From a virus (taxonomy: Duplodnaviria > Caudoviricetes): a DNA stretch of 64,000 bases. Below, in pieces: positions 10,714 to 63,012 of the stretch. Where the stretch lies: IMG/VR virus record IMGVR_UViG_3300015607_004160, one strand, 5' to 3'. The notes under the pieces are model-generated. The model was given only the letters and a program-made list of their open reading frames with translations, was not told the DNA's origin and searched no databases. Each line of letters starts with the position of its first letter. The stretch's first letter is position 1. Made by a program: the position numbers and the translations under genes.

Positions 10714-11043
10714 TTATACACTAAAGCTCGAACCACATCCACAAACGCGGGAAGCATTGGGGTTAATCCATTCAAAACCTTTACCATTTAATCCATCCGA
10801 ATAGGTAAGTTCAGTGCCCCATAAGTATAGAATACTTTTTTTATCACAGACAATATTAATAGCACCGTTATCAAATATTTCATCGTGTTCATTTATCTTA
10901 TCATCAAAATCCATTTTATATGATAATCCTGAGCAACCACCACCAGTAACACTAACTCTCAAATTGTGTGTATCGGGAGTAATACCATCACTCATCATTA
11001 ATTCAATAACATGGTCCATCGCTTTTTCACTAATAGTAATCAT
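10714..11043 (-). CDS. iscA: Fe-S cluster assembly A-type carrier (IscA/HesB/SufA)
   Basis: GGGCSGLSY and NPNASRVCGCGSSF. Confidence 0.92.
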   Translation of the reverse strand: MITISEKAMDHVIELMMSDGITPDTHNLRVSVTGGGCSGLSYKMDFDDKINEHDEIFDNGAINIVCDKKSILYLWGTELTYSDGLNGKGFEWINPNASRVCGCGSSFSV

Positions 11044-11354
11044 AATAATATCATATCTAATTTTTTATCTCTCGTGTATGAGTAGAATTTACTATAGGTC
11101 TCACTTTTAAATTTTGATGTAAATTTCTTTTCATATGAAACTTTATATTTATAATTTTTCTTTTCTTTTTTAGTAGAAAAGTCGAAATATCGATTTTCTG
11201 ATATCTCAACAACTACACAGTTATAAAATACGAAATGTCTTTCGGAATGTTTTGAATATTCTATAGTTGATGGTATTTCACATTTCTCCTCAAGAATAAA
11301 GTGAAACATATTATCCTCATATGAAGATCCTATTATATTAAGCTTAGTAGTCAT
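11040..11354 (-). CDS. Hypothetical protein with C-terminal tag (RDKKLDMILL)
   Basis: Start MTTKL overlaps the upstream stop. Confidence 0.65.
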   Translation of the reverse strand: MTTKLNIIGSSYEDNMFHFILEEKCEIPSTIEYSKHSERHFVFYNCVVVEISENRYFDFSTKKEKKNYKYKVSYEKKFTSKFKSETYSKFYSYTRDKKLDMILL

Positions 11355-11628
11355 ATTCATCATCCTCATCATCATCCTCATCTTCATAGTCTTCATCTTC
11401 GTAATACTCTTCATAGTCTGGGTATTCAATAACATCATTATCCTTGAAGAAGAGGAGTAAGTCTTTTTTTTCTTTTAAATTTAATCCAGTATTTTTTAAT
11501 TTTATAACTTCATCACCTTTGAAAAAGGAAAATTCAATTTTAGCATCATTTTCTAGATCTTTTAATTTTTCAAAAATTAAATCTTTTTCGTGACATTCGT
11601 CTAAGCTATAGTACTTACATAGTTTCAT
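11344..11628 (-). CDS. Hypothetical protein with acidic Tyr/Asp/Glu tail
   Basis: Ends YEEYYEDEDYEDEDDDEDDEYDY. Confidence 0.65.
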   Translation of the reverse strand: MKLCKYYSLDECHEKDLIFEKLKDLENDAKIEFSFFKGDEVIKLKNTGLNLKEKKDLLLFFKDNDVIEYPDYEEYYEDEDYEDEDDDEDDEYDY

Positions 11629-11636
11629 TTGAATAA

Positions 11637-12374
11637 TTATATTTTTTTCATCTTTCTATATATTAATGTATTTGATAAAATTGGTTTATCTTCATTATCC
11701 TCCCATTTAGCAGATATAACTAATTCACCCCCTATCAAACTGACGCTAAAATACTTATTTTTTCCTATGCGAAATGTTGCATATGTATCTTCTATTTTTA
11801 TTGGTTCGACTTCTATCTCGTCATCTCCATCAAAATTTTTCATTGATTTCACAAAATCAAATCTCTCATTACCTTTATAATATTCTTTTTTTAAGAGTTT
11901 TAAAAATGGATCATGAATCTTTAAAACCTCATTTTTTCTAACACCAAATACATCCTTCCATTTGAATCCCAATGTTATATGTAAGTCCATTTCTGGAAGA
12001 CCAAATATCTTTCTTAGCTCCTGCAAATCATCAGACTTAACTACGACAAAATATGTCCTATTTTCATTTCTTTCAGCTGTTCCAACCCCCATTAAATTAA
12101 TTTCAAATTCAGTATCAAAGTATTTTTCTAATGAATTAATAAATTTATCAAATCCAACTTCTTTTGATATTTTGTTATATTCCATAACATTGATGACAGT
12201 TATATGATGCTTACCATGGTCCCTATTAGACTGATTGGTTATATAGGTATCATAATCATCTTCTAATATTTCTTCTAATTGAGATAGGTAAGGTGTTACT
12301 ATATCAGTATAGATATTAACTCCTATATAATTATTACCGACTATATCTTTTAAATATTCTAATCTTACTTTCAT
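11637..12374 (-). CDS. 2H phosphoesterase family protein
   Basis: Two HxT motifs: HHITV and LHITL. Confidence 0.75.
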   Translation of the reverse strand: MKVRLEYLKDIVGNNYIGVNIYTDIVTPYLSQLEEILEDDYDTYITNQSNRDHGKHHITVINVMEYNKISKEVGFDKFINSLEKYFDTEFEINLMGVGTAERNENRTYFVVVKSDDLQELRKIFGLPEMDLHITLGFKWKDVFGVRKNEVLKIHDPFLKLLKKEYYKGNERFDFVKSMKNFDGDDEIEVEPIKIEDTYATFRIGKNKYFSVSLIGGELVISAKWEDNEDKPILSNTLIYRKMKKI

Positions 12375-12817
12375 TTTCCTTTAAATTTTAATTTACCGAC
12401 TACTAAGGCAGGAGTAGTATACAATAATTTTTTTAATTTACCTATATATCTTTTATCAGATATTAATATTTCAAAATCTAGAGATTCACTATCTTTTGAT
12501 AGACCAATATAAGCGGATTCGAATCCATAGTCTTTACCCATACCCTCTATTTCAGCTATTGCGTATTTGCTAATATCAACGGTTTTAAATTTTCGTTTTG
12601 AGTCTGATCTAAAACTATCTAATACATAGTCAACTGCTGCTAATATACTATTAAATTTTTCTTCCTTTCCATTATAATTTCCAACTACAGATACCTTAGT
12701 TATCTTTCTTCGTATATCTCCTATAAAATTGGTTAATCTGTGATCAGCTAAATCCTTTGTTAAGGCCGACGCAACTTTACTAGCACTAAATAACTCATTG
12801 AACTTTTTAATTTTCAT
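12371..12817 (-). CDS. Hypothetical protein with N-terminal tag (MKIKKFNE)
   Basis: AAATATATA at 12823-12831. Confidence 0.7.
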   Translation of the reverse strand: MKIKKFNELFSASKVASALTKDLADHRLTNFIGDIRRKITKVSVVGNYNGKEEKFNSILAAVDYVLDSFRSDSKRKFKTVDISKYAIAEIEGMGKDYGFESAYIGLSKDSESLDFEILISDKRYIGKLKKLLYTTPALVVGKLKFKGK

Positions 12818-12833
12818 AGGATTATATATTTAA

Positions 12834-14843
12834 TTAAAATCCATTATTTTTTAACCAAACGATAAAATCATGAGCATATAAATGTTTTTTACCTTCATAT
12901 TTGCTATCGGTTCCTTTTATTCCATATAAACCATACCCTGGATCAGAAAGTTTCATTTTTTTATGTTCTTCTATTACTCTTTCCTTTAATGACCTATCCC
13001 TAGTATTATTAGCTGAAATTATATTAAAATTTCTTTCATCAATATTAAAATCACATACTTTAGTCCATGTTTTTGTTAGAACCGACATTTGTTTATTTAA
13101 ACTATAAAAGTCTTTTCCACTTGTATTATTTGGGTGTTTTCTACCAAGAGGTTCCGGCTTTTGAGTACATATAATATAATCTTTAGTTTCCATAACTATC
13201 GCCCTTGACCCAACTTGAAATCCTAGACTTTCTAAGTATTCATCATTTAATTGTTTATCTTCTTCATAGTTATACTTATCATTGACCATCATTCTAATAT
13301 TTAACACCTTGTCTGAATATTCTAATTTACCATTATCACAATAGACTGTAATAGTTTTTATTTCTTTTATTCCTTTTAACCTGTTCATAACTTGTTGAAT
13401 ATCAGAATAGAAACTAGCAGATTTTAAAAACTCAATGTGATTCGAATACCCAACTGGTAATCCATATCCTTTAAGTGACATGGTAAAGTAGTAGTTGTTA
13501 TCAGCATAATCGTTAGTTTTGGTATCATTTAGATATAAATTGTAAGTTCCCTGAGCAAATTCACTACGAGGAGGTGCTTTACTCAAACTATCAGTTACAT
13601 ATAAAAAAGCATCTTCAATTTCGGATAATAAGGCATATTTATCTATTTCCTTTGGTATATCATATTCACCAACTCCATATTTATTCAGGAATTTTTTTGC
13701 AAATTCTACATTTCCTTCTCTTTCCTTCTCTTCCTCTTCATGTTCCATAATATCTTTACATATTTCAATAGCTCCATCTATATAAGATTGGTCAAATTTA
13801 GTTATACCAAGCCTTGTTCTTTTTTCATCACTTAACATAGCATATATGTTTGATGAAGAAGATATTGGGTAATAAGCATGATATGGTTCTTTGTATTCTT
13901 CTGGTTGTTTACCAGTTCTCTCTGCATATAGATTTTTAATTATTTGATCAATATCTATATCTAAATCATCATCATCTTCCACATCGTCAGATATCAAATT
14001 TTGGTCTTTTATTTTACCCAAAAACATACTTTTCCATTTTTCTTTTTCAGCTTTTTCTTTGTCCTCTCTTTCCTTTTTAAGCTTAGAAATATGTTGATTT
14101 GCCGCATCAATAGTCATGGCAACTTGGGGTATATTTAATATTCTATTTACAACCTCTTGTATTTGTGGGGCAAATTTTGCATTTTGCCAATCTCCATATC
14201 CTGCCAGGTCTTGGTCTGCACCACCTGCTTCTTCTATGATAAATCCATCTTTATTCCATCCATACCCTGTTCCTATAGTACATAATAGGTTATCTGATAT
14301 GGATCTTCTATTAGAATAAAGAGATTTATATTTATAATTAGGATCTAGTTTAATTTCAACCCAATCTTCAAGTGTTTTGTTAATCTTTAACATCTTCTTT
14401 TCTAGTTCACTCAGTGGTTTGCCATTTTTAATTAAATTAAAAAATGTTTTACTGTCTTTAACATTATCTCTACCATTGGTAACATGCATCGCCCACGCAT
14501 CATAGATTAGATTTTCTATTTCATTGTTTTGGGGATTACACATTTCAATTTTATATTTAGGATTATCTTCACAATCCCAATAACCGGTTTCCTCACCATC
14601 TTCATCTGTAGTTGTAGCTCCATCTCTAAGAATGCCATCACCTCCCCAACAAACTCTACCATCATACCATAAGGTATTATACATATATCCTAGCTTGGCT
14701 AATTGTGGTAAATTCTCTGATTGAGTTAGGTACTCTTGATTTTCCCTAATACAAATAAGTATAGGATCAATTACATTTTCCTCAAATTTGAAATGTTTGT
14801 CATTGACGAAACTTTCATATGTTTTAACTATTTTCTTTGCCAT
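12834..14843 (-). CDS. Large hypothetical protein with N-terminal tag (MAKKIVKTYES)
   Basis: C-terminal ~270 aa is paralogous to the upstream ORF. Confidence 0.75.
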   Translation of the reverse strand: MAKKIVKTYESFVNDKHFKFEENVIDPILICIRENQEYLTQSENLPQLAKLGYMYNTLWYDGRVCWGGDGILRDGATTTDEDGEETGYWDCEDNPKYKIEMCNPQNNEIENLIYDAWAMHVTNGRDNVKDSKTFFNLIKNGKPLSELEKKMLKINKTLEDWVEIKLDPNYKYKSLYSNRRSISDNLLCTIGTGYGWNKDGFIIEEAGGADQDLAGYGDWQNAKFAPQIQEVVNRILNIPQVAMTIDAANQHISKLKKEREDKEKAEKEKWKSMFLGKIKDQNLISDDVEDDDDLDIDIDQIIKNLYAERTGKQPEEYKEPYHAYYPISSSSNIYAMLSDEKRTRLGITKFDQSYIDGAIEICKDIMEHEEEEKEREGNVEFAKKFLNKYGVGEYDIPKEIDKYALLSEIEDAFLYVTDSLSKAPPRSEFAQGTYNLYLNDTKTNDYADNNYYFTMSLKGYGLPVGYSNHIEFLKSASFYSDIQQVMNRLKGIKEIKTITVYCDNGKLEYSDKVLNIRMMVNDKYNYEEDKQLNDEYLESLGFQVGSRAIVMETKDYIICTQKPEPLGRKHPNNTSGKDFYSLNKQMSVLTKTWTKVCDFNIDERNFNIISANNTRDRSLKERVIEEHKKMKLSDPGYGLYGIKGTDSKYEGKKHLYAHDFIVWLKNNGF

Positions 14844-14844
14844 T

Positions 14845-15663
14845 TTATAACCCATTATTTTTTAGCCATAATAAAAAATCTGTTGCATAAAGGTCTTTAG
14901 TACCTTCTTTTTTACTTTTGTTTATACCATATGTCCCATAAGACTTATCTGATAATTTCATTTTTTTGTGTTCTTGAAAAATTTGGTGAATAAAATTTTC
15001 CAATTTTTTATCTGAAATCTTATATTCATTTTCATTATACAATAAATTAAATCCCCTCTCGTCTATTGTAAGATCAAATAATTTATTCCATTTTTTATCA
15101 CATATTTCAAGTGATTTCACTTGAGGTTCTATATTATTTACTACATAAATATTATATGAATTTAATTTCATACCGATAAATGTATCTGATATTTCAAATC
15201 CTTTTTTTGATAATTCATTTTCCCTTTTTAACCTTTTACTATACCCATGATTATCATTGACTATCATCTTTATTTCTATATTTGCATCTAAATCATCTAA
15301 ATCAACTTCCTCACTTTCAGGTATATTTGAATAATAGAAAAAAACAAACTTTAGATCCTTTATTAATCGAAGTCGATGTAATACATTTTTAATATCGTTA
15401 TAAAATGCAGCCCCACTAAGTGATTCAATATCATTTGAAAATCCAAAAGGCAATTTATCAATATCACCTAATTTTAGATAAAAGTAATAATTATTATCAT
15501 CATATGCCTCATTTATATATAATGTATATTCCCCAGCTTTCATTTCTGAGGTATAGAAAGATTTAGTTCTCTTAAAAGAATCGGTTAAATAGAGAAAACA
15601 ATCTTCTATTTCACTCAACAACTTATATTTAAATAAATCTCTAACTTTTTTAATTTTAGCCAT
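14845..15663 (-). CDS. Hypothetical protein, paralog of the C-terminal domain of 12834..14843
   Basis: KYKLLSEIEDCFLYLTDS vs KYALLSEIEDAFLYVTDS; IDERGFN vs IDERNFN; DFLLWLKNNGL vs DFIVWLKNNGF. Confidence 0.75.
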   Translation of the reverse strand: MAKIKKVRDLFKYKLLSEIEDCFLYLTDSFKRTKSFYTSEMKAGEYTLYINEAYDDNNYYFYLKLGDIDKLPFGFSNDIESLSGAAFYNDIKNVLHRLRLIKDLKFVFFYYSNIPESEEVDLDDLDANIEIKMIVNDNHGYSKRLKRENELSKKGFEISDTFIGMKLNSYNIYVVNNIEPQVKSLEICDKKWNKLFDLTIDERGFNLLYNENEYKISDKKLENFIHQIFQEHKKMKLSDKSYGTYGINKSKKEGTKDLYATDFLLWLKNNGL

Positions 15664-17724: not shown

Positions 17725-17728
17725 AAAC

Positions 17729-17812
17729 TATATATTAAATTTCATTACCGGAAAAGTCGAATAGTTCTAAATGGATCTTTTATTTAAAATATACGTAAAA
17801 ATTTAATATATA
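17729..17812. promoter_or_regulatory. Divergent pair of putative late promoters TAATATATA
   Basis: 17729-17737 (-) and 17804-17812 (+). Confidence 0.55.
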
Positions 17813-20737: not shown

Positions 20738-22279
20738 TTAATCTTCTTTTTCAATAAGGATTTGTTTTACCTTATTGTTTGTTCTTGAGATAGGTACTTT
20801 TGTACCAATTGAAATCAGAAGTACATTGCCTTTAATCTTAGACAGGTCTAAGTGGTCACAGTATCCATCAGTCAATACGAGTGTATTGAATTGATTGAAG
20901 TGTTCAGCCACATAGTTAATAGCTGGTTGAAGAACAGTACCCCCTAATCCTTTGATAGGAATAGATTCTAAGTGTCTCTTAGATTTGATATTCTGAACCC
21001 ATTTTACTTGTGTATCTGCTTCGATCAAGTTTACTTCAATATCATTACGATAGATGTAAGACAATACACGTTCAAATGTACCACCCATAGAACCAGATGT
21101 ATCAAGGATACAGTTGATCTTCGTCTTGATCTTACGATTGCCTTTTAGACCTTGAATTTGACGACGGTTAGGTTTGGTAACAGTCTTTTGTTTCTTAGTT
21201 CCGAAGATAAGATTTGATACTGAACGTTTGATATGTTTTAAATAATCTTTTCTCTTCTTACGAAGTTTGTTAAGGGTTTGTTCAATATTACCACCTTGAA
21301 GGCCACGTGCCTGGAGTCTTTCCATAGCATCTTTAACCATTGATTCTCGCATTTCTTCTGGAACTTCATCACCCATGTGTACGTCCATGTATTGACCTTC
21401 ATTATTTTCTATATTATCAAAGATTTGATCAAGAGAATATGTGTCAATAGTTCCTTTTTCATTTTTAGGGTCTTTACCGTAAGCACCGTATGAAGGGTTG
21501 CCTTGTGAGTCTTTACCACTCTCACCACCAGTTCCATTACAATCTGGACAAGGTTCGCCTTTACCATGTTGGTGTCCACCTGATTGTTGACCACCACCTT
21601 GTGATTGGTCTTGTGATTGTTGGTCACCTTGACCCTGACCTTCACCTTGTTCGCCTTGGCCTTCACCTTTTTCTTTTCCTTGACCACCTTCTGATGGACC
21701 TTGTTGTCCGGGTTGATTACCTTTACCGCTCTGAGGTTTCTGACCTGTTCCGTTACAAGTAGAACATTTACCGTTCTTTTGCTGCTTTTTACGATGTTCT
21801 TCTTGTTTATCACGAAGCCACTCATAAACTTCTTCAAAGATAAGTTTTCCTTTGTATTCTTTAGGAATAAACAAAGCCATGTTACGTCCTGAGTCATCCT
21901 TAGGAATTTCAACGAAAGTGTTAGGAATATCTTCCCAAATGATATGATTGATAATCATATCTTGAGCAATGTTAGAAAGTTTGTGGTCGTACTGACCAGT
22001 GATAGTACGTTTTGGGTGATTCCAAAGTAAGTGGAAGTCCTCATGAAGAGTAATAAAGTTTACTTCTTTTTGAGAAAGTTTTTCTAGGAATTCAGAATTG
22101 TAATAAAACTGCATTCCTTTTGTGGTCATATTAACGCCACAAGTGGGAAGACTTTTACTCTCATGGAAAGTAACAAAAAGGTTGAAGTTACCGTAGTAGG
22201 GTAAGTTCACCTTAGTATCAATCAACATAACTTGGATTGATTCCATTAACTTTTCGTGAATGTTTTTTAATTGAGTCAT
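20738..22279 (-). CDS. DUF2201-type metallopeptidase-like + VWA domain protein (typical MoxR AAA+ partner)
   Basis: LHEDFH..NIAQDMIIN; two CxxCxGxG motifs flanking a Q/G-rich linker; LDTSGSM, GLGGT, LTDGY. Confidence 0.85.
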   Translation of the reverse strand: MTQLKNIHEKLMESIQVMLIDTKVNLPYYGNFNLFVTFHESKSLPTCGVNMTTKGMQFYYNSEFLEKLSQKEVNFITLHEDFHLLWNHPKRTITGQYDHKLSNIAQDMIINHIIWEDIPNTFVEIPKDDSGRNMALFIPKEYKGKLIFEEVYEWLRDKQEEHRKKQQKNGKCSTCNGTGQKPQSGKGNQPGQQGPSEGGQGKEKGEGQGEQGEGQGQGDQQSQDQSQGGGQQSGGHQHGKGEPCPDCNGTGGESGKDSQGNPSYGAYGKDPKNEKGTIDTYSLDQIFDNIENNEGQYMDVHMGDEVPEEMRESMVKDAMERLQARGLQGGNIEQTLNKLRKKRKDYLKHIKRSVSNLIFGTKKQKTVTKPNRRQIQGLKGNRKIKTKINCILDTSGSMGGTFERVLSYIYRNDIEVNLIEADTQVKWVQNIKSKRHLESIPIKGLGGTVLQPAINYVAEHFNQFNTLVLTDGYCDHLDLSKIKGNVLLISIGTKVPISRTNNKVKQILIEKED

Positions 22280-27874: not shown

Positions 27875-29632
27875 TTATTTTATTACATCATCAATCTTAA
27901 TATCACGAAGAACCTCAACAGGAAGACTAAGATCATCATTTAATTTGATAATATTAAATCCACCTGGAATATTAATCACAACATCACAACCACCTCTAAC
28001 TTGATGTTGAATATAATCCGATAAATCGAATTTGGTATTATATATAGCAGTATTAGTTTGATTATAGATAACTGCCGCGATTCCAATAGTTCCCCTAAAA
28101 TTCGGAATTAAAACTCCTCCTACAATTTCGCATTCAGTCATTTCGTCACCTTTTTCTTCTTGTAATTTTTGATACTCTTTTAATGTCATAACCGATCCGA
28201 ATCCAGTTGAACTTAGATATCTAACAATTTTTTTATCATTTTGATGAATTTCAAATGAGGTTTCATCATCTGTTATTTCAAATTTAGTACCAACGTCCTG
28301 ATAATCACCAAGAATTACTATATCTGTAGGTGTGCCGAATTCAACAAGACTTTTAAATTTTTCTTCCGTACCTTCTTCTAGTTTATTAATTAGTTTTTCT
28401 TCGTTTTGTTTTTCAGCAGACTCGTTGGTGTCGTCACTTCCATACATAGCAAAGTAGGAATTACTACCACACATTTTATCAAATTCCGGATCTTGTGAAA
28501 ATCCGTACTTAATCATTTTATCAACAATATCATGCCATTTAAGATCCCCGTTATAGACCAATTTTTCATTATCAAGAGAAGTCCCAATTTTCTGCAATGA
28601 TAATTTAATATCGTCAGGTAAACTATTGTAGTCAGTAATTTCAGCCAGTACATCTATGCTTTTAGCACCAATTCTGATTTGATATTCACCCGCCTCAAAC
28701 AACTTCATAAAAGCATCAGCATTAATACTTTTGAGTTTAGATACCTTATCATAAATTAATTTGGCAGTTGCTTCGTCTAATACAATTTTTTCATTTAATT
28801 GTTCAGATACAAAAAAGTAATATCCATTAGGTTCTGTAGGCGGCTGAAGTGAATCAATCCTTGATTCTAATACTCGAATATCAGTTTTTGCGGTTTCAAT
28901 CTTCCCTTCAGCTTGAACTTTTTCATACTGATACCTTTTCAACTCTTGGGTTTGTTGGTCAAGCCTGTTTTTTAATTCGTTTAGTTTTTCTTCTTTCATT
29001 TTAGCAAAAGATTCTTCCATAGCCTTCTGTGCATCAGATTTAATTTCTTCATCTGACTCTCCCTCAAACTCACGATTGATTTCTTCATCATTTTCGGATG
29101 AAAGTAAAGTTTCAGCGAGTGATTGTTCTCCCTCATCAAACATTGATAGAAGGTCGCTTAATTTTGAATTCTGCTCATCAGAAACCTCAATAGTATCTTC
29201 ATCATCAAAAATAGATGCTAATTTAGAAATGGGAGTTTGATATTCAACCGCGAGATAGAGGCTGATTTCTTTATCTTTAATTTTCTGAACTGATTTAAAT
29301 GGAAGTTCAGTAACAACCATATTGTTGTTAAACATACTGATTGTTTTTTCAGAAATCACATCTAAAAGACGTTCTCTTTGTTCAACAGTAGTTTTATTTG
29401 TATCAACTTCATCAAAGTTAACAGTTCCTTCATCACAAATAGTTAATTTGAGTGTGATACCATCCATATCCAATCCGGATAAGTGCTTAGCTTCAATAAG
29501 TGCTTCATCTGCGTGAAATTGAATGTTTCCACGTCCACCAACAAATTCAAGAAACTTTTCCTTTGGTTTGAATTGACCAATTACCTTTTCTTTCGGTTGA
29601 TCTTGTACTTGTTCTGTGTTTACATTATCCAT
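27875..29632 (-). CDS. Coiled-coil hypothetical protein with C-terminal tag (RDIKIDDVIK)
   Basis: 585 aa; TATCTTTG promoter element at 29652-29659. Confidence 0.75.
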   Translation of the reverse strand: MDNVNTEQVQDQPKEKVIGQFKPKEKFLEFVGGRGNIQFHADEALIEAKHLSGLDMDGITLKLTICDEGTVNFDEVDTNKTTVEQRERLLDVISEKTISMFNNNMVVTELPFKSVQKIKDKEISLYLAVEYQTPISKLASIFDDEDTIEVSDEQNSKLSDLLSMFDEGEQSLAETLLSSENDEEINREFEGESDEEIKSDAQKAMEESFAKMKEEKLNELKNRLDQQTQELKRYQYEKVQAEGKIETAKTDIRVLESRIDSLQPPTEPNGYYFFVSEQLNEKIVLDEATAKLIYDKVSKLKSINADAFMKLFEAGEYQIRIGAKSIDVLAEITDYNSLPDDIKLSLQKIGTSLDNEKLVYNGDLKWHDIVDKMIKYGFSQDPEFDKMCGSNSYFAMYGSDDTNESAEKQNEEKLINKLEEGTEEKFKSLVEFGTPTDIVILGDYQDVGTKFEITDDETSFEIHQNDKKIVRYLSSTGFGSVMTLKEYQKLQEEKGDEMTECEIVGGVLIPNFRGTIGIAAVIYNQTNTAIYNTKFDLSDYIQHQVRGGCDVVINIPGGFNIIKLNDDLSLPVEVLRDIKIDDVIK

Positions 29633-29691: not shown

Positions 29692-30096
29692 TTATTGATT
29701 ATCAATTATTTCGTCAATACCAATCTCTCTTCTCTTAATAAGAGCTTCTTCATCACTTAAGGGAGGTGGTATTTTTTCGCCTTTGGAATTAATAAGATTT
29801 TGTACTTTAATAAATTTATCACCAGTTTCTTTACCAAGCTCTATCATATCCGTGTCTGCTATTTCAAAATCATCACCAGATAAGTCAGGAAGACAATCAT
29901 ATATAATTTGTAATTCCGGTCCAAATTTTTCAAAGTTCTTCATAACAACTGGATCATCATCATCATAAGAGTCAGTGGATAAAACTAAAAGAAGAAGCAA
30001 TTCTTTTCTACTTAGCTGCTTCATCTTTTCCACTTGACTAATTACATTAAAATTTTGATAAATGTCAATAAATAAGTCACTTACTTCTTTATTCAT
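29692..30096 (-). CDS. Hypothetical protein with C-terminal tag (REIGIDEII)
   Basis: 134-aa ORF. Confidence 0.7.
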   Translation of the reverse strand: MNKEVSDLFIDIYQNFNVISQVEKMKQLSRKELLLLLVLSTDSYDDDDPVVMKNFEKFGPELQIIYDCLPDLSGDDFEIADTDMIELGKETGDKFIKVQNLINSKGEKIPPPLSDEEALIKRREIGIDEIIDNQ

Positions 30097-30427
30097 TTTC
30101 TAATAGTTTTGATATTACGTAATCACGGTATTCTTTTGGAACATCTTTGGATCCAATAGTTTTACCTGCTTCACCAGTGACGGAACCTAATTCAAATGCC
30201 TTACGGAAAAATGCCTCAAAAATGGTATCATTCTCAAGTTCTTTAGCTGCCATTGCTCGGTTGATTGCTTTAGTTTCATCAGTAATTAAATTAGCCTGAC
30301 GATAAGCCAGTTGTTCCTCAACTTTCTTATCACCACCGGCTTTTGTAATTATATCCTTAACGCGAGTATAATTTTTTAAAAATTCTTTCTCTGATTGACC
30401 TTTGATTTTTTTTGATCTTGTTGCCAT
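30089..30427 (-). CDS. Hypothetical protein with C-terminal tag variant (RDYVISKLL)
   Basis: 112-aa ORF; TTCGTATCTTTA upstream. Confidence 0.7.
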   Translation of the reverse strand: MATRSKKIKGQSEKEFLKNYTRVKDIITKAGGDKKVEEQLAYRQANLITDETKAINRAMAAKELENDTIFEAFFRKAFELGSVTGEAGKTIGSKDVPKEYRDYVISKLLENE

Positions 30428-30920: not shown

Positions 30921-31517
30921 AATCTGCTAAAGGTGTATCTTGAAGTAATCTTTTTCTATCCTTATTTCTCGCCTTCTTTGTATCTGTAGAAGTATACATA
31001 GTGGAGGGAACCATATAAGTTTGATTTAGATCAACTGGCTGACGATAAGACTCTAATTTGAAATTATCATTTGCTAATTCTTTAACTATTGATAACATGT
31101 GTTGTCTAATGTCTAAACTATTTAGCACATCTAGAGCATATCCGTATTTGTGTGCCATATAGTTTATAAAAGACATAGGAATATAAAGATATCCGTTGTC
31201 TTTGACATTATACCAAAAGTCTAAATTAACAGCAAGTTCTTTTGGAACAAGTATTGATAATTCTGTTTTAATTGTTTCTAACATATTTATATTTTTAAAA
31301 AGATGATGAGCGTGCCCGCGATTCTGTTTTATTCTATCATTTATCTCACCTTGCGGTGGCCTTTCGGCTGCCCTAACCCGACCATTATTGAGAAACCGAC
31401 ACTCTAGGTCTGTACAGGTTGCTACTTCTTTGGTATAACGACTTATTAGGTCTTCCAAATTAGGTTTTGTAGTCGCGAAGTTCCTCTAGTTTTCACCAGC
31501 GATAGATCCTCTTTCAT
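30910..31517 (-). CDS. Hypothetical protein; 5' end interrupted by apparent single-base insertions
   Basis: Removing two bases gives MKEDLSLVKLEELRDYKTNLEDLISRY from ATG 31517, which overlaps the upstream stop. Confidence 0.55.
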
Positions 31518-31978
31518 CTTGATAATATTTCGAGATTAAATTCTCGTCGATTACGTTCTTTGTAATTATCAATAAATTTTCTTAATAAAGGATGAATATG
31601 CTTATATTCAATCGGTGTGACATCATCAATTTTTCCTATATATTCTTCAAAGACATAGAAAAGATTCTCAGGAGTGACCTTCATTGTATTAATCATACAT
31701 AGATAGTTTAACACCCTTTCCTTTTTTGGATCTATTGTTTCATTACTTCTATTCCATTTTGCCATCCAGGCTAGCTTTAATGACATTGCTTCAAAGTCTC
31801 TCAAAACAACTCCTTGCCACCAATCGGAAAATTCATCATTCCGAACAATTGGGTCAAATCCAATCATAGATTGATATTTTTCCCAAATATAACTTATATG
31901 AGAATTAACAAGGTATGAATCTTTGACAACCTTGTGAAATAATAAAGAAAATGCTATTATGTTATTTGTCTTACTCAT
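31514..31978 (-). CDS. Hypothetical protein with C-terminal tag variant (REFNLEIL)
   Basis: 154-aa ORF. Confidence 0.7.
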   Translation of the reverse strand: MSKTNNIIAFSLLFHKVVKDSYLVNSHISYIWEKYQSMIGFDPIVRNDEFSDWWQGVVLRDFEAMSLKLAWMAKWNRSNETIDPKKERVLNYLCMINTMKVTPENLFYVFEEYIGKIDDVTPIEYKHIHPLLRKFIDNYKERNRREFNLEILSR

Positions 31979-33030: not shown

Positions 33031-33690
33031 ATGAAACATCTAAAATCGTATAGTCAGCACAATGAAGGAATCGGAAGTTCTCTATTAAAAGCAGGATTAG
33101 CCGGATCTTTATTATTTAATTCTCCTGAGGTTAAATCTCAACCAAATAATCCAGTTACTACTCTAAGTAAAGATACGTCAGGTAGATCTGAAGTTAAGAT
33201 GGTGAATCATCTATATAATTTAAGATTAGAGAAATCTAATGATACATCATTAAATGCTATTTTGGACGAAATAAAAGGAAATTTAAATACAAAAGATTCC
33301 ACTAAATTTATTGACTTATTTAATAAATTATCTTCATACTTGGAATCACAATATGGATATAAAATCGAAGCCAGAAAAATTGAGGATTTAGATGGTGAAG
33401 AATTAAAAAGGGATCCAGGTAAGTTTAATCTTTTTGAGATATTGGGGTGGTTAGGCTCTATTTGTTTAGCTTTATGTGGAGTTCCACAGGCTATAATGTC
33501 TTATAAAGACAGGCACTCACATGGCATATCGTGGGGATTTTTGATATTATGGGCGTTTGGAGAACTTTTTGCACTTGCTTATGTATATGATAAGTTAGAC
33601 CTACCTCTATTATTAAATTATGCTGTAAATATTTTAATTGTCGGAGTTATTTTATACTTTAAAGTTAGACCTGAGGTTGATCCAGAATAA
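33031..33690 (+). CDS. N-tagged protein with C-terminal PQ-loop (SemiSWEET-like) membrane domain
   Basis: MKHLKSYSQHNEG; GWLGSICLALCGVPQAIMSY..GISW..LLLNY, three hydrophobic helices. Confidence 0.7.
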   Translation: MKHLKSYSQHNEGIGSSLLKAGLAGSLLFNSPEVKSQPNNPVTTLSKDTSGRSEVKMVNHLYNLRLEKSNDTSLNAILDEIKGNLNTKDSTKFIDLFNKLSSYLESQYGYKIEARKIEDLDGEELKRDPGKFNLFEILGWLGSICLALCGVPQAIMSYKDRHSHGISWGFLILWAFGELFALAYVYDKLDLPLLLNYAVNILIVGVILYFKVRPEVDPE

Positions 33691-33922
33691 CATCTATCTT
33701 TTTATCTCTGAAGTATGCAGCAATAGTTTTCATCTCATATCTCGGAAATTTACCTCCAGTAAAATTACTATGAATTTTATCGAAATTTTCGACAGTAAAA
33801 TTAGTATATGTTTTCCTATAAAGGGAATCTCTTAAATGGGTTAAAAATGAATTTTGTGGATCGTATTCAGATACAATAGAATATACATATTTAATGTATT
33901 CAAATTTTTGTTCATTTGTCAT
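33665..33922 (-). CDS. Hypothetical protein with C-terminal tag (RDKKIDVIL)
   Basis: 85-aa ORF. Confidence 0.65.
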   Translation of the reverse strand: MTNEQKFEYIKYVYSIVSEYDPQNSFLTHLRDSLYRKTYTNFTVENFDKIHSNFTGGKFPRYEMKTIAAYFRDKKIDVILDQPQV

Positions 33923-34430
33923 TTAATATATTAATTTTTAATTCGCGATTGGTTGCTAATAGCAAGTTGTAAATTTTGTGAACTCCATCCATGTCCAATG
34001 GATACTTGAAATGATGACTAAAATATAAATTTTCAAAGTTTGTATAAAAAGCATATATAGAAGGGAAAAAATCATTCATAGTTTCCTTTGAAAATTTAGA
34101 ATCAGCAGTAATTGATCCTTTACCAAAGGTCATAGTTAGTAGTCCTACATCACCAGGGTTTCTATCTCCAATGAATGACTTGCTTAAGAACTTTTTGTCT
34201 ACTGTAAACGATGGTAAATATTCATCTATATTTGAAACACTCTGCGGAAGTGGTTCAAATATATTAACCTCATACCCATCAACTAATTTATCCTCTGTAT
34301 CAATATCAGTTGGATCATATTCAAAGTCAGACCAATATTGTTCATCATGATTAACAGAAAATAAATCAAGTGGTACTGATGATACTTTAGTTGGTCTGAG
34401 TACTAACATTAATTTTAATTCTTCTTTCAT
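33912..34430 (-). CDS. Hypothetical protein with C-terminal tag (RELKINIL)
   Basis: 172-aa ORF. Confidence 0.7.
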   Translation of the reverse strand: MKEELKLMLVLRPTKVSSVPLDLFSVNHDEQYWSDFEYDPTDIDTEDKLVDGYEVNIFEPLPQSVSNIDEYLPSFTVDKKFLSKSFIGDRNPGDVGLLTMTFGKGSITADSKFSKETMNDFFPSIYAFYTNFENLYFSHHFKYPLDMDGVHKIYNLLLATNRELKINILNDK

Positions 34431-35352: not shown

Positions 35353-35594
35353 TAGTTTAAAATTTTAGTTAATTGATTATCTCTGTTAATTTGATTTGTA
35401 ATATTTTCAAATAGAAAACTATTCTTTTCATAGAACTCAACACTTGTACCAAATGGATGTAATTTTCCATTAAATAAACAAACATTTGTCCTTTTAAATA
35501 TTGGTAGATTAAAACTATGTGTTACTCTATACCATACCAATAGGTGTCTATAATCAGACAAATTTGTAGTAATATCAGGAAAATATAATATCAT
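35352..35594 (-). CDS. Hypothetical protein with C-terminal tag (RDNQLTKIL)
   Basis: 80-aa ORF; TTCGTATCTTTG ends 4 nt upstream. Confidence 0.65.
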   Translation of the reverse strand: MILYFPDITTNLSDYRHLLVWYRVTHSFNLPIFKRTNVCLFNGKLHPFGTSVEFYEKNSFLFENITNQINRDNQLTKILN

Positions 35595-42239: not shown

Positions 42240-42595
42240 TATCAACTGAAACACAGTATCTATATTGTATGAATGATGTAGGTGGAGAGGATTTTATTAC
42301 TACTTCATTTTCGTATTCTAATGAATCTGATAATATTCATATTTTTAATTTTAATCAAGTCGAATTTGATATAACGAGAATTAAATATGTGGCTATTGAT
42401 TATACATTAGATCCTTTCACATCATTTAATAAAAGATATACAAACTCTAATGCTTTACGGATTTTTAAAGTAAAATTTACTGAACAAGATTTTGATCGAA
42501 TGACGGTTACTCTATTGATCGAGGGGCAAATCAAATCATTTGATTTACAAAGTTATAAGAGGGATATAAAAATTGAAAACATTATAAATGAATAA
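42236..42595 (+). CDS. Hypothetical protein with C-terminal tag (RDIKIENII)
   Basis: 119-aa ORF. Confidence 0.7.
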   Translation: MISTETQYLYCMNDVGGEDFITTSFSYSNESDNIHIFNFNQVEFDITRIKYVAIDYTLDPFTSFNKRYTNSNALRIFKVKFTEQDFDRMTVTLLIEGQIKSFDLQSYKRDIKIENIINE

Positions 42596-44422: not shown

Positions 44423-44953
44423 TTAAAAAAGTAAGTTTATTTTTATTTCTCTTTCTAATGATCCGATGTAATCTCTAATATCTTCTCTTTTTGTATAGAA
44501 GACTTCTTTATTTATCCAATAGTCATAACTTTTTGATAGAAGTCTATTTTTTTGTATACTATATATCTCTTTAAACTCATCATAACATCCGTATTTTATT
44601 AGATATCTTGATAAATTATTTGTATAATCAAATCCTATTTTGTAGAATCCATCAAAAAAAACCGGATCTGTAATGTTTCTAACATATTGTGAAATATTAA
44701 TTTTATGGAATTCTTCATCGGTAAATTTTTGATCAAAAAATATTTGAGTGGATTTGAATAAAAAATCAATATTATTATTCTTTAAAATCTTAACTAATTG
44801 TAAAACATATTTAGCTATTTTTATATCTAAATATACCCAGATATCGTCTCCACTTTTAACTAAGATTGGAATTTTAGCAATATAATCCACATAGACAATA
44901 TTTTTAGATATTATCCACCTATCATTGGTCGGTATAATGCTTGATAAGTTCAT
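44423..44953 (-). CDS. Hypothetical protein with C-terminal tag (REIKINLL)
   Basis: 176-aa ORF. Confidence 0.7.
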   Translation of the reverse strand: MNLSSIIPTNDRWIISKNIVYVDYIAKIPILVKSGDDIWVYLDIKIAKYVLQLVKILKNNNIDFLFKSTQIFFDQKFTDEEFHKINISQYVRNITDPVFFDGFYKIGFDYTNNLSRYLIKYGCYDEFKEIYSIQKNRLLSKSYDYWINKEVFYTKREDIRDYIGSLEREIKINLLF

Positions 44954-46884: not shown

Positions 46885-47231
46885 ATGGCCAAAGGCAAAT
46901 CAACAGCTAAATACATACACTCAGCAGGGATTTCCAATAATACCTCAGTGACATCAACTTATAATGGGGCACATTGATATATAATGGATCGTCAATAGGA
47001 TGGACTATACTTAAGTCTAAGTATATTATTTTAAATAGGGAAATTGAGGTAGAAGGTGATAAGGATTTTAATGTAGCATTATGTGTTTCACTGATAAATA
47101 CACTTGGAATAGAATATTATATCGAATTAAAAAAACAAGAAGTAAGTCTTCCCAAAGAAATTGATGATTTTTTAGAAAAGGAAATTGTTTCTTATTATAG
47201 AAATAAGACAATAGATGAAATCATGAAATAA
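46885..47231 (+). CDS. Hypothetical protein with C-terminal tag (RNKTIDEIM); apparent missing G at ~46967
   Basis: ATG 46885 frame (MAKGKST..) joins the 46974 frame if one G is added to the G-run. Confidence 0.6.
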
Positions 47232-48264: not shown

Positions 48265-48793
48265 TAACTTACACGGAGAAGAAACCTTTGCTGAGTTTGT
48301 AATTAATAATAAAGAAAGTATCTTGAAAAGATGCACAAATACATTTCTTAAATCTACAAATAGTATATCAGGTAGTAAAGTTGAAAAAATCACTAGGTAT
48401 AATGTAGACTTGATTCGCAAATGGGGGTCAGCAATTAGCATCAATAGTTTATCAACCGACTTTACTGAAACACTTTGCTTTTTTTGTGAGGTGCTATCAC
48501 TTTATGATGAAAGATGTAAAATGAGTATGTCATATAATATTATTAATATAGATAATGAGCTAAAATTAGTATATGAAAGAATATCAAAATATAAACATAG
48601 GTCAAAGATTGTTGATAAATACTATAATTATCATACCGGTAAAACTGAATATCTATTGCAAGATGGATCATTTGTTCCAACGGGTGGTGTTCCCCCAACT
48701 ATAAATATGAATTATAAATATTTCCCAACTGAATTCTTACCTTTATTGGATGAATCAGAGTATAGAAATGCTAAAATAGACCAGATATTATGA
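48245..48793 (+). CDS. Hypothetical protein with C-terminal tag (RNAKIDQIL)
   Basis: 182-aa ORF. Confidence 0.7.
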   Translation: MNLINHNNLHGEETFAEFVINNKESILKRCTNTFLKSTNSISGSKVEKITRYNVDLIRKWGSAISINSLSTDFTETLCFFCEVLSLYDERCKMSMSYNIINIDNELKLVYERISKYKHRSKIVDKYYNYHTGKTEYLLQDGSFVPTGGVPPTINMNYKYFPTEFLPLLDESEYRNAKIDQIL

Positions 48794-49020
48794 CTAAAGT
48801 AGAACTGTATAAATACTATGATGTTGAAAACATAATTGGGGCAGATTCTATTATCTTTAAAATAACCTCAAAGTATGATAAAAGTGAGTATTATTTTACT
48901 TTTAATGCGTCTGAAATTCATGATTTTGTCGAGGATGGAACAATTTCAGAAAATATTTTAAATATGATTAGTGTATTAAGATCTGGTATAAGAAATTCTA
49001 GAATAGATCAAATTATATGA
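48790..49020 (+). CDS. Hypothetical protein with C-terminal tag (RNSRIDQII)
   Basis: 76-aa ORF. Confidence 0.65.
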   Translation: MTKVELYKYYDVENIIGADSIIFKITSKYDKSEYYFTFNASEIHDFVEDGTISENILNMISVLRSGIRNSRIDQII

Positions 49021-50323: not shown

Positions 50324-50615
50324 AGAATGTTTAATTCACTGGTCTTCAATCGGACGTGATTTTAAAAGTTACTTTCTTTTGGAGGAAAAAATATATGAAT
50401 TGAAGGTTTCTTTACCACTACGTATTGATAATGAGAAAGATGCAATAGAATGGATTAAAAATCTAGTAAGCTTTTCAAATGAAATAACACTTATTGAATT
50501 GCTAAATAATGAGGATAAAATAATGACAGAGACTAATCTTTTTAAAAAAAGAGTATCATTACTTATAAAAAAAGAAAGAGATAAAAAAATAAACACAATA
50601 ATAAATGGAAAGTAA
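50301..50615 (+). CDS. Hypothetical protein with C-terminal tag (RDKKINTII)
   Basis: 104-aa ORF. Confidence 0.65.
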   Translation: MQKSQINKECLIHWSSIGRDFKSYFLLEEKIYELKVSLPLRIDNEKDAIEWIKNLVSFSNEITLIELLNNEDKIMTETNLFKKRVSLLIKKERDKKINTIINGK

Positions 50616-51138: not shown

Positions 51139-51425
51139 GAAAAGAAGATTTAGAATTTTTTGAAAAATTAATAGGTGACTTAAATGCTGGATTCGGTAAG
51201 GAATATAATCTATTTGCATGTGAAGAAGGTATTAAAATATCCGAAGCGTTAAAAACCAAAGAAAAAATAATTGAGTTTCACAAATCTACATGGGAAGTCC
51301 AAAAAGAAATGGTGCCAACTATTGATGATGGCCACTCTGGGAATACATTTGGGTTGGCTTGTAAATTAGCCATTGCTTATATACCAATGATAAGAGATAA
51401 AAAAATTGATATTATAATAACTTAA
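51135..51425 (+). CDS. Hypothetical protein with C-terminal tag (RDKKIDIII)
   Basis: GHSGNTF motif; 96 aa. Confidence 0.7.
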   Translation: MRKEDLEFFEKLIGDLNAGFGKEYNLFACEEGIKISEALKTKEKIIEFHKSTWEVQKEMVPTIDDGHSGNTFGLACKLAIAYIPMIRDKKIDIIIT

Positions 51426-60924: not shown

Positions 60925-61281
60925 TTATTTTAAAATTTCTTTTAACTTATTATCTCTATCTACATCAGTTGGTGGAGATAGCCAATAAATATTTTTATTT
61001 TCTGTCCATACTGGAAAATATTTACTTTCTAAAATTCGTCTTCTACTGTAATCTGACTTATTAAATGGTGTAGTTATAACTTTTATTTTTGATAATAACT
61101 TATCACAATAAACCTCCTTTACTTCAATAATTACATTATAGTTTCCATAATTTCCGTTATTTGGTGTTATTACGGTAATTGCTGGTTTTGTTGATGTATC
61201 ATAGCCTACTTTTAGAAAAAGAAGTCCAATTCTTTTATCTTTAATATTATCGACAAATCCACTTCGTCTAAATAAACTCAT
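60925..61281 (-). CDS. Hypothetical protein with C-terminal tag (RDNKLKEIL)
   Basis: 118-aa ORF. Confidence 0.7.
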   Translation of the reverse strand: MSLFRRSGFVDNIKDKRIGLLFLKVGYDTSTKPAITVITPNNGNYGNYNVIIEVKEVYCDKLLSKIKVITTPFNKSDYSRRRILESKYFPVWTENKNIYWLSPPTDVDRDNKLKEILK

Positions 61282-61589
61282 TTTAAAATAATTTTAATTT
61301 TTTCATCCCTTTCATCTTCTAATGTAACTATTTTATATATAGAGTTTCTTGTTTTAAATGTTCTATCATCAATTATTTCTTTAACCTCAGTAGTAAATAG
61401 AGGAAATACTGGAGCAGGTGAACTATTAATATCTTCTGGTGAACATGTATATATAACAAAACTTTTTCCTACAACAGGCCATTCAAAAAAATATCCATTA
61501 AGGATATCACCTTTTTTAACTTGTAGTACTTTACCTTCTTGAAATGATTCAATTTTAATAGCCTTGGCTATTACTCTTTGATCCGACAT
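61278..61589 (-). CDS. Hypothetical protein with C-terminal tag (RDEKIKIIL)
   Basis: 103-aa ORF; FTTEVKEI..FKTRNSIY. Confidence 0.7.
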   Translation of the reverse strand: MSDQRVIAKAIKIESFQEGKVLQVKKGDILNGYFFEWPVVGKSFVIYTCSPEDINSSPAPVFPLFTTEVKEIIDDRTFKTRNSIYKIVTLEDERDEKIKIILK

Positions 61590-62485
61590 ATTTGGTTATT
61601 ATTATATTTTTCTAAAAAGTCTACAACGTAGTTATCATTAACAAACTCTTTTATTTTAAAGAAATAATCGGTTGCAAATTGTCGAAACCATCCAGAACAT
61701 AAGTTAGTGCATATCCTCATTAATGCCCATTCTAATGCTTCGTTTGATGAAACCCAACTTGCTTTCCCAAAGATACCAGGTAACACTTTTCTTTCAAGTG
61801 CAATGACATAGGCTTCTTCTAATACACATTTACATTTGTTTTCAAATGAAAATCTATTCCACATATCTTTTTCACATTTAGCAATAGTTATATCCCTCTG
61901 CATATTTAAATACAGTGGTTTATCATAATGTGCAACTGCTTTATGAATATCATCGTGAATGAAATAAGATTTAACAAACCCCTTTGATTGTCCGAAAAAT
62001 TCAGTAATTGGTTTATTTAAAGATGGCGTTTTTAACTTACCAAGCCTTTCTTCGGTTTCTTTATAACGTAGTTTAGTAATATTATCTAAATAATCTCCTC
62101 CTAATTTTTCATTTAAAAAGGTATAGTCAACAATATGCTTATTAAATTTAATAGGGAAATGTATATGACTTTTCTTTAGAGAAAGTAAAACCTCTAAGGA
62201 AGCCCATTTTAATCCACGATCACTAGAATCAAAATCAAGGTATAACCGGAGTGAGCTGGACTCATCTGCAATTAGAACCTCTACATTTTCAGTATCGTAG
62301 AATGCTGACTTATTTTGAATTCCAATTAGTGAGGTGATACCATCTCCTTCCTTAATTTTTGATGGGTTTAATGTGCTAATCAAATATTGTAAATCAGATT
62401 TATATCCGATTAAATCAATATCCTTAACCTTCCTATTTAAAGATGGATAATGGTATGTAAGTGCTTTTGATCCAATAATTAACAT
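61571..62485 (-). CDS. Phage nucleotidyltransferase-like protein
   Basis: IIGS..DID (pol-beta NTase pattern); LKKSH, HDDIH, EEAYVIALER. Confidence 0.6.
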   Translation of the reverse strand: MLIIGSKALTYHYPSLNRKVKDIDLIGYKSDLQYLISTLNPSKIKEGDGITSLIGIQNKSAFYDTENVEVLIADESSSLRLYLDFDSSDRGLKWASLEVLLSLKKSHIHFPIKFNKHIVDYTFLNEKLGGDYLDNITKLRYKETEERLGKLKTPSLNKPITEFFGQSKGFVKSYFIHDDIHKAVAHYDKPLYLNMQRDITIAKCEKDMWNRFSFENKCKCVLEEAYVIALERKVLPGIFGKASWVSSNEALEWALMRICTNLCSGWFRQFATDYFFKIKEFVNDNYVVDFLEKYNNNQICRIKE

Positions 62486-62496
62486 AATATTATTTT

Positions 62497-62760
62497 TTAA
62501 TCATAAGATGATTCTTCACCATCCTCATAAGAAGACTCATATGAATCATAGGATTGTTCCTCATATGACATTTCATCATCATAATTTAGAAGATTATCAA
62601 TATTGAGAATTTTATCAGATACATCAACATCCAAATTTGACTTCGCAGCTTCTTCTAATAACTGTGATAATTGAAATTGAGCATCACTGTGTGAAATGCT
62701 TTTTTCCCGGCACATTTCTAATATACGGGATAGTTTTTTGTAGAAATCTACTATATTCAT
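62497..62760 (-). CDS. Hypothetical protein with Ser/Tyr/Glu tail
   Basis: Ends SYEEQSYDSYESSYEDGEESSYD. Confidence 0.65.
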   Translation of the reverse strand: MNIVDFYKKLSRILEMCREKSISHSDAQFQLSQLLEEAAKSNLDVDVSDKILNIDNLLNYDDEMSYEEQSYDSYESSYEDGEESSYD

Positions 62761-62766
62761 ATTTAT

Positions 62767-63012
62767 TTATTTTAAAATATCATCAATTATATGTTTTCTA
62801 AAATCTCCTTTGCTTATGAATCGACTATAATGATATGCTTGCCCGACTTTTATATCATTTATGACACATATCCAAAAATTTTCATCACCTGAATATACTT
62901 CAAGTGAATCAATTATATACTCTTTACCAACCGTTAAACTAGAACGATTATTTAAAATACAAATAACCTTTTCTCCTACGACAAATCCCTTATGTTCTTT
63001 TATTTCACCCAT
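62767..63012 (-). CDS. Hypothetical protein with C-terminal tag variant (RKHIIDDIL)
   Basis: 81-aa ORF. Confidence 0.65.
   Translation of the reverse strand: MGEIKEHKGFVVGEKVICILNNRSSLTVGKEYIIDSLEVYSGDENFWICVINDIKVGQAYHYSRFISKGDFRKHIIDDILK

Follow-up and report, generated by a model that had tools for sequence, protein, structure and literature searches.

The locus and its relatives

The subject of this paper is a peptide of about ten residues, which we will call the tag, that recurs at the C-termini of small phage proteins. We describe it in a stretch of 64,000 nucleotides (nt) from the IMG/VR virus record IMGVR_UViG_3300015607_004160 (Duplodnaviria; Caudoviricetes); "the window" means this whole stretch. 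The window is densely coding, has a G+C content of 28%, and provides 86 open reading frames (ORFs) with 20,054 amino acids (aa) as the base of its statistics. Among its products are EF-G, a split type II topoisomerase, a CCA-adding/poly(A) polymerase-like enzyme, a thioredoxin reductase, a 5'-3' exonuclease, a primase-like protein, an M16 peptidase, a DUF2201 metallopeptidase-VWA protein (VWA-metallopeptidase below) and ClpP.

The nearest GenBank records are uncultured phages of 634-642 kilobases (kb), and topoisomerase subunit A is 71% identical to theirs. These records form the 'Mahaphage' clade, for which Bacteroidetes are predicted as hosts (PMC7162821). The thioredoxin reductase of the phage finds its best matches among Bacteroidota enzymes (53-57% identity). 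The source is an uncultured huge phage, probably of Bacteroidota. For comparison we used IMG/VR genomes reached via the topoisomerase: G003 (465 kb, 32% GC, loci L024-L047), G006 (281 kb, 30% GC, loci L081-L095) and a more distant relative, G005 (388 kb, 49% GC, loci L048-L067). G006 is possibly incomplete, because no DNA polymerase is detectable on it.

A peptide confined to chain ends

The consensus of the tag is R-[DEN]-x-K-[IL]-x-x-[IL]-[IL], that is R, an acidic or amide residue, any residue, K, I or L, an acidic or polar residue, any residue and two positions with I or L, followed by 0-3 polar residues. A sequence-only reading of this DNA had proposed that about 18 ORFs end in this motif. 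All 18 peptides were located at the ends of the ORFs it named, 0-5 residues from the stop codon and in 9 of the 18 cases exactly one residue from it; three are looser variants (Table 1).

We searched for the tag with a strict regular expression and with a looser one, R[DEN]..[IL]..[IL][ILMV]. The strict form has 8 matches in the window, every one C-terminal (at most 5 residues from the end) and none internal. The loose form has 13 C-terminal matches and no internal match, where 1.05 internal ones are expected. Shuffling whole proteins gives 0.06 expected C-terminal matches (maximum 1), and shuffling the last 15 residues alone gives 0.11 (maximum 2). Tail-only shuffling abolishes the signal, and therefore the order of the residues counts, beyond their composition; the two kinds of shuffle together rule out chance or composition as its origin. 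G003 repeats the pattern, with 30 C-terminal matches against 0.15 expected and 6 internal matches against 5.9 expected. Thus C-terminal enrichment exceeds 100-fold while the internal frequency is that of chance, and the expectation that the motif would be far commoner at C-termini than inside proteins was borne out. With a small profile of the tag we obtained 43 sites from the window and G003 together, 41 of them C-terminal. A match of the regular expression in the PhoH protein of G003 (182564-183343) is the PhoH family's own C-terminus and was set aside as a false positive.

Selection acts on the peptide. Where tags share a residue they use the same codon in a fraction of 0.61 of cases in the window, with 0.52 +/- 0.05 expected from genome codon usage, and of 0.50 in G003, with 0.46 +/- 0.03 expected. 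The R of the tag is encoded by AGA, AGG, CGT, CGA and CGC. Codon choice in the tags follows genome usage, so that the constraint is on the peptide and there is no DNA-level repeat, as had been suggested from the variation of codons. The same test rules out a DNA repeat, a promoter or a ribosome-site signal. Certain 8-mers enriched upstream of tagged genes proved to be the coding sequence of the preceding gene's tag.

The tag is also kept among orthologues; its absence from them had been named beforehand as a result that would speak against it. In 27 orthologue pairs the R is retained in 26, and the sole exception is a misalignment. Identity over these pairs is 54% in the tag and 39% in the body, with the tag ahead in 23 of the 27. 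All 12 homologues of the 81-aa protein (62767-63012), the most distant at 43% identity, carry the tag. The 176-aa protein (44423-44953) is encoded at a conserved place, with the exonuclease and topoisomerase genes on either side, and the tag residue R168 is one of four invariant residues in 24 sequences of this family, down to 27% identity. The 585-aa protein is a different case. Most of its orthologues have about 395-446 aa and no tag. In the window and in locus L020 the protein is longer by a 190-aa extension with the tag at its end, which is a gain of the tag.

Table 1. Tags of the window and the candidate reader encoded near them
Feature	Position	Strand	ORF or product	Remarks
tag	11043..11072	-	ORF 11040-11438, 132 aa	strict motif, 1 residue from stop
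tag	27878..27907	-	ORF 27875-29632, 585 aa	on 190-aa C-terminal extension absent in most orthologues
tag	29695..29730	-	ORF 29692-30096, 134 aa	kept in L005 and G006 orthologues
tag	30092..30127	-	ORF 30089-30427, 112 aa	kept in L005, L020 and G006 orthologues (variant with L-G-h end)
tag	31517..31546	-	ORF 31514-31978, 154 aa	looser variant
tag	33668..33709	-	ORF 33665-33922, 85 aa	5 residues from stop
tag	33915..33947	-	ORF 33912-34430, 172 aa	looser variant
tag	35355..35384	-	ORF 35352-35594, 80 aa	
tag	42560..42592	+	ORF 42236-42595, 119 aa	
tag	44426..44452	-	ORF 44423-44953, conserved 176-aa protein, replication module	looser variant; end of long, confidently modelled last helix
tag	47199..47228	+	ORF 46974-47231, 85 aa as called	gene start probably 46885, other frame
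tag	48764..48790	+	ORF 48245-48793, 182 aa	directly at stop
tag	48991..49017	+	ORF 48790-49020, 76 aa	directly at stop
tag	50577..50612	+	ORF 50301-50615, 104 aa	
tag	51393..51422	+	ORF 51135-51425, 96 aa	
tag	60928..60957	-	ORF 60925-61281, 118 aa	
tag	61281..61310	-	ORF 61278-61589, 103 aa	SH3-like family member by prediction
tag	62770..62799	-	ORF 62767-63012, 81 aa	SH3-like family member by prediction; model: five-strand barrel plus C-terminal helix 68-80
DUF2201 metallopeptidase + VWA protein	20738..22279	-	513 aa	weak candidate reader

One coordinate of the sequence-only reading, an ORF start at 46885, was off. A frame of 30 codons opens with an ATG at that position and ends at 46977, in -1 overlap with the tagged frame (46965-47231). 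The L005 orthologue of this apparently split gene, 46885-47231 (+), is a single protein of 131 aa. A sequencing error, decay to a pseudogene or a programmed shift could lie behind the -1 frame change.

Distribution and gene arrangement

The tag is specific to one clade. It occurs on 16-18 of the 86 ORFs of the window (about one gene in five), on 42-44 of 540 in G003 and on about 33-49 of 399 in G006. The related low-GC huge phages have it on 8-12% of their ORFs, and it is present in most low-GC loci examined; none of the 533 ORFs of G005 has it. G006 shows a sub-variant in which an L-G-[ILF] end replaces [IL]-[IL]-x, for instance at 133461-133979 (+) and 237332-237673 (+); here the glycine seems to cap the helix ahead of a hydrophobic residue.

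Tagged genes cluster on one strand, in tandem arrays, and lie among replication-type genes: topoisomerase, 5'-3' exonuclease and a GreA homologue in G003. The last, a homologue of the GreA/GreB transcript-cleavage factors (L030:3857-4327:-), stands within an array of tagged small genes. A role of the tag in cis can also be considered. As a nascent peptide its last residues might act in the ribosome tunnel at termination and favour re-initiation on the next overlapping gene. Stop-start coupling, taken as a gap of at most 5 nt to a downstream gene on the same strand, does occur at 54 of 109 tagged genes as compared with 98 of 351 small untagged ORFs (Fisher p = 4e-5, with spurious ORFs of a simple gene caller included in the control set). 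However, such enrichment is expected anyway for tight gene arrays, half of the tagged genes are uncoupled, and arrest peptides do not tolerate a distance from the stop that varies from 0 to 5 residues. Coupling is neither necessary nor specific for tagged genes, and we regard this explanation as highly improbable.

Some neighbours of the tagged genes deserve a mention. A 109-aa protein (10714-11043, minus strand; 57% identity in G003) has an IscA/HesB-like C-terminus, C-G-C-G-S-S-F, and its gene lies directly downstream of a tagged gene with an overlap of 4 nt. The window also holds two pairs of paralogues: 12834-14855 (-) and 14845-15663 (-), 39% identical over 287 aa, and 18291-20333 (+) and 58938-60887 (-), 39% identical over 211 aa, the latter an HD-domain protein and a DnaJ-type zinc-finger-repeat protein.

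The proteins that carry the tag

Are the carriers of the tag unrelated, as had been claimed, or members of one family? BLASTP among the tagged proteins of the window found no similarity between any pair. With the tag removed, the window's 16 carriers form 16 clusters and 109 carriers of three genomes form 91 (phmmer, E<1e-3). The latter result rules out a single paralogous family for all carriers. They are short, with medians of 85-104 aa against 177-186 aa for all ORFs. Pfam searches with the window's 18 carriers, and PHROGs searches with ten of them and the 585-aa protein, gave nothing significant.

The description of the carriers as otherwise dissimilar nevertheless holds only in part. When the tag was removed from 56 carriers, 17 still clustered in phmmer, and a profile of this group finds 23 proteins, 22 of which have the tag or a near variant at their end. 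If C-termini are aligned on the R, the conserved part reaches about 30 residues upstream in many small carriers: a strand, a D/N-x-G turn, a strand with the pattern aromatic-P-x-x-x-F and then the helix, with F at -7 in 18 of 49. This divergent family, apparently an SH3-like barrel plus helix, makes up about one fifth of the carriers and is chiefly an expansion of G003 at 427-440 kb. About 80% of the carriers have no relation to it or to one another.

ORFs 61278-61589 and 62767-63012 both fall in the phmmer cluster and, judging by the model, belong to this family of small barrels with a C-terminal helix. The AlphaFold2 model of the 81-aa protein has a confidence (pLDDT) of 85.5, with strands at 15-67 and a helix at 68-80. 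Foldseek ranks KOW, Tudor, SH3, PetP and YorP barrels highest, all with E >= 0.02. Matches at E < 0.001 exist to five uncharacterised phage proteins. Within the SH3-like model, pLDDT is 61-70 for the tag helix and 82-93 for the barrel, and the lower value would fit a part that is not fixed to its own body.

The 176-aa protein gives a different picture. Its model combines an alpha/beta part with a helical bundle and has a long helix (pLDDT 89-96) whose end is the tag. The fold of this family had no convincing match in PDB (best Foldseek E 0.14; best VIA Z 5.9, to helical-repeat proteins). In a relative, one carrier has a DUF1281_C ferredoxin-like domain that ends 17 residues ahead of the tag, and another is a phrog_2164 protein whose profile stops 2 residues ahead of it. 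The tag is thus found on several folds. The statement that no recognisable enzyme carries it is correct within the window but would have to be set beside these two carriers in the relative.

Two apparent fusions of tagged genes contain the tag in mid-chain, followed by a second module: G003 432222-432578 (L045:12222-12578:-) and the L004/L008 orthologue of the 81-aa protein, 17390-17791 (+). One of them has a terminal tag as well. Internal tags of this kind are expected if the tag marks the ends of modules.

These observations allow an explanation that needs no reader at all, and we consider it the main alternative to a docking function. The tag would be the last helix of a fast-diverging family of small proteins, sometimes recombined onto neighbours at gene ends and kept for stabilising small proteins. 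The family that survives tag removal, the 30 further residues common to many carriers, the tandem arrays, the two-tag fusions and the confidently modelled, possibly packed helix of the 176-aa fold can all be cited in its favour. But most carriers are unrelated to the SH3-like family and to each other, and their bodies have different folds. If the helix were purely structural, unrelated folds would have no need to keep R invariant and at a constant distance from the end, nor would this account for a pattern that is at chance level in internal helices and that is the best-conserved part of fast-evolving proteins. On balance a reader-free helix seems unlikely.

What might read the tag?

Several candidates for a partner can be considered. 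One is the VWA-metallopeptidase. In this specific version of the docking reading, the tag would dock its carriers on a MoxR-type AAA+ protein and the DUF2201 VWA-metallopeptidase for remodelling or cleavage, and the acidic residue of the tag could bind the VWA metal site. The VWA-metallopeptidase is as conserved as the topoisomerases (67% identity to G003 and 60-70% to other loci) and is encoded in all the larger tag-bearing genomes examined. It occurs in the window, G002 (L001), G003, G004, G006, G008, L003 and L010. Its gene is near tagged genes and the 585-aa carrier in the window, G003 and G006, and in G003 a MoxR-like AAA_5 protein is encoded about 3 kb away.

Structure prediction with this protein had been proposed in the sequence-only reading. 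Co-folding the VWA-metallopeptidase with the 81-aa carrier scored 0.40, classed as weak support (runs of 0.40, 0.43 and 0.00), and the best of three controls scored 0.00. In the calibration of the method, 58 of 80 solved complexes passed and so did 2 of 110 mismatched pairs; passes at 0.60 or under comprise 7 of the 80 solved complexes and both passing mismatches. With a prior of about 0.1, a weak pass at this level is more often wrong than right, and one of the three runs scored 0. Contact agreement between runs was at least 0% and the pLDDT of the partner at least 61, and the prediction yielded no interface. Two further observations count against this reader: the tag-bearing contig G009 (78% complete) has no match to it, and the tagless G005 has a weak DUF2201_N-like match of 23 bits, just below the cut-off. 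On the strength of the model we treat the VWA-metallopeptidase as a lead only, and its role as reader as distinctly doubtful.

Another potential role for the tag would be that of a degron or an adaptor handle. Carriers could be cleared on schedule, or could deliver host proteins, through a ClpC-like unfoldase and ClpP of the phage or through those of the host. The position at the C-terminus would suit a degron or an adaptor tail like that of SspB, which is C-terminal. ClpP is encoded at 56438-57103 in the window and has homologues in G003, G008 and G009. The relatives have a ClpC-like unfoldase of about 700 aa (L069:1165-3276:- and L070:229-2328:+). Its two AAA modules are accompanied by a UVR-type middle region, and it has a loop, G-I-G-F / G-L-G-Y, like those that dock on ClpP. 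By these sequence features it could work with ClpP.

Several facts speak against this role. The unfoldase is present in the tagless G005 too. It has no recognisable N-terminal domain for binding adaptors: Clp_N finds no match in the phage proteins, whose first AAA module is preceded by just 30-60 residues of poor conservation. The motif is followed by 0-5 residues, mostly polar ones, in contrast to degrons that are read at the free carboxylate, and an ssrA-type C-terminal degron can be rejected since there are no nonpolar last residues at a fixed distance from the carboxylate. In the 176-aa family the tag helix appears integrated in the fold. Finally, neither ClpP nor the M16 peptidase, both named in the sequence-only reading as possible readers, has a homologue on the tag-rich G006. 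The absence is weak evidence on a contig that may be incomplete, but it disfavours both as obligatory readers. We consider a Clp-directed tag improbable.

In G002 and G004 the ClpC-like unfoldase is one gene of about 700 aa. In G003 it is divided between two genes 50 kb apart (L032:9694-11184:+ and L030:909-2102:-), with the break inside the second Walker A motif (G-V-G-K, then C-V-T-K-D...); from its sequence the break looks like a split intein. For a 358-aa protein encoded next to ClpP, the ESM Atlas look-alikes are unnamed viral clusters alone.

A sliding clamp had also been named as a reader. The tail of T4 polymerase recalls [IL]-D-x-[IL]-[IL], and the spacing of the PCNA-interacting peptide (PIP) box is [DEN]-x-x-[IL]-x-x-[IL]-[IL]. 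The tag has this very spacing, its core resembles the T4 polymerase tail, and it is C-terminal, so a clamp-binding tail has to be considered. However, the C-terminal piece of a family-B polymerase in a relative (G003 365414-366451, minus strand) ends in a T4-like hydrophobic-acidic sequence, L-D-I-F-S-G-F, and not in the tag. Four Pfam models detected no clamp gene of the T4, PCNA or beta type; PF02916, PF09116 and PF02768 had no match in G003 and G004, though a divergent clamp could escape such a search. Moreover, 8-20% of all genes is an implausible number of clients. A clamp-binding tail is barely credible to us. The polymerase gene of G003 is divided, with more than 130 kb between its pieces, 232981-234474 (-) and the one just mentioned, and several other large proteins end in acidic D-x-F-type tails.

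Capsid packaging is a further suggestion. These genomes have a second tag, N-terminal and of the form M-K-Y/H-L/I-K-x-F-E (MKYLKxFE-type), on 5 ORFs of the window and 30 of G003 (for example L030:5299-5676:+). The N-tagged proteins have a median length of 170 aa, and their tag resembles the T4 capsid-targeting sequence. The C-terminal tag might be a second packaging signal, a helix that binds the scaffold or inner shell and thereby lets small anti-defence proteins be injected along with the DNA. A basic amphipathic helix at the C-terminus of the P22 scaffolding protein and short peptides in encapsulins have such a shell-binding role, and huge capsids offer room for cargo. Yet the N-terminal and C-terminal tags are never on the same protein, and in G003 at 420-440 kb the N-tagged genes are on the strand opposite the C-tagged array. 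The opposite strand together with the replication-type neighbours fits genes that are not late, and no linkage to structural genes was seen, a point looked at only via those neighbours. Packaging is therefore very unlikely in our opinion.

A host partner was also sought. In 800 kb (749 ORFs) of one Chitinophagaceae chromosome there is no enrichment of the tag at C-termini that would suggest mimicry of host proteins: two C-terminal matches (one duplicated protein) stand against 16 internal ones, with no profile match. The choice of this genome follows the phage thioredoxin reductase, whose nearest relatives are Bacteroidota enzymes; it may not be the genome of the host, which makes the negative result a weak one. 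Nor is the difference in gene content from the tagless G005 informative as a route to the reader, as G005 shares just 46 of the 540 G003 proteins.

Interpretation

The explanation to which we give an even chance is that the tag is a portable C-terminal helix that serves as a constant docking handle for one shared partner. An amphipathic helix of about ten residues would have been added to many unrelated small accessory proteins, or kept on them, in one clade of low-GC huge phages related to the 634-642 kb 'Mahaphage' genomes. R, K and the three aliphatic residues lie on one face of the helix and would bind the single partner, and the variable body would supply the individual function of each carrier. 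A membrane-targeting amphipathic helix of the MinD/FtsA type was rejected, as positions 2, 6 and often 7 of the tag are acidic and just three positions are hydrophobic. That the tag is read by any partner, and by one partner, we infer. It is uniform within the clade and absent in the more distant relative, which points to a reader that co-evolves with it and is probably phage-encoded, rather than to a conserved host machine.

The original proposal of a docking or sorting signal thus keeps its core, a strictly C-terminal peptide under selection on many different bodies, while the readers named for it found no support and its function is a matter of inference. A number of points weigh against a docking handle. 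None of the candidate searches (clamp, Clp, M16, VWA, one host genome) yielded a reader. The tag helix of the 176-aa protein, modelled with such high confidence, may pack into its own fold and not be free to dock. In the one fifth of carriers that form a family, the helix could be a plain part of the domain. Recombination between small genes in tandem could also spread the tag, and a generic benefit such as stability could maintain it. Lastly, the structural statements rest on predictions.

Full-text searches of the literature found no description of the tag, and the term 'C-terminal' is absent from the main text of the paper on the closest genomes (PMC7162821). What we add to the proposal is the SH3-like module behind part of the signal, the statistics on orthologues and codons, the exclusion of a clamp tail, the weakening of the case for ClpP and M16 and a weak lead to the VWA-metallopeptidase.

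Why should such a peptide matter? In these phages, the largest known, 8-20% of the genes are functionally unassigned small ORFs that have a common label. If the tag is a handle, one binding experiment would lead to a common pathway for a large part of the 'dark' proteome of the clade. It would also provide a short portable peptide for addressing proteins and show how very large phages organise accessory proteins round one hub. Analogous tags may serve likewise in other clades of huge phages. A tag at the stop codon is, in addition, a simple criterion for real small genes in these genomes.

Comparison with known systems

We know other examples of short peptides shared by unrelated proteins. The T4 capsid-targeting sequence (on IPI-III and Alt) is, like the tag, a peptide of about ten residues on unrelated phage proteins with one destination. 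It is N-terminal and is removed by the prohead protease, whereas the tag is C-terminal, differs in sequence and never occurs with the N-terminal tag. Its position, and the presence of a similar N-terminal tag on other proteins, exclude that the two signals are identical.

The cargo-loading peptides of encapsulins and the C-terminal helices of scaffolding proteins are likewise short C-terminal peptides on unrelated cargo, read by a shell of the HK97 fold. Their consensus is a different one, and the carriers of the tag look non-late and are encoded among replication-type genes. The clamp tails of the T4 type and the PIP box share with the tag the extreme C-terminus, the hydrophobic spacing and the presence on several unrelated proteins per hub. 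Here, in contrast, the polymerase has a distinct tail and the carriers are far too numerous.

In its architecture the tag is also like the XB tail of SspB and the PRANC/F-box-like motif of poxvirus ankyrin proteins, in that a variable body is joined to a constant C-terminal docking peptide; in the poxvirus case there are many family members per genome. It differs from them in that there is no sequence similarity, the phage ClpC-like protein has no N-domain, many folds carry the peptide instead of one repeat family, and docking is putative. One may speculate, though we think it unlikely, about a hub-and-adaptor system in which dozens of small, fast-evolving proteins with different host or phage targets plug through the constant helix into one phage machine, be it the VWA-metallopeptidase with MoxR or the ClpC-like unfoldase, and in which each clade has its own pair of helix and reader. 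If correct, this would be the bacterial-virus counterpart of the F-box/PRANC substrate receptors.

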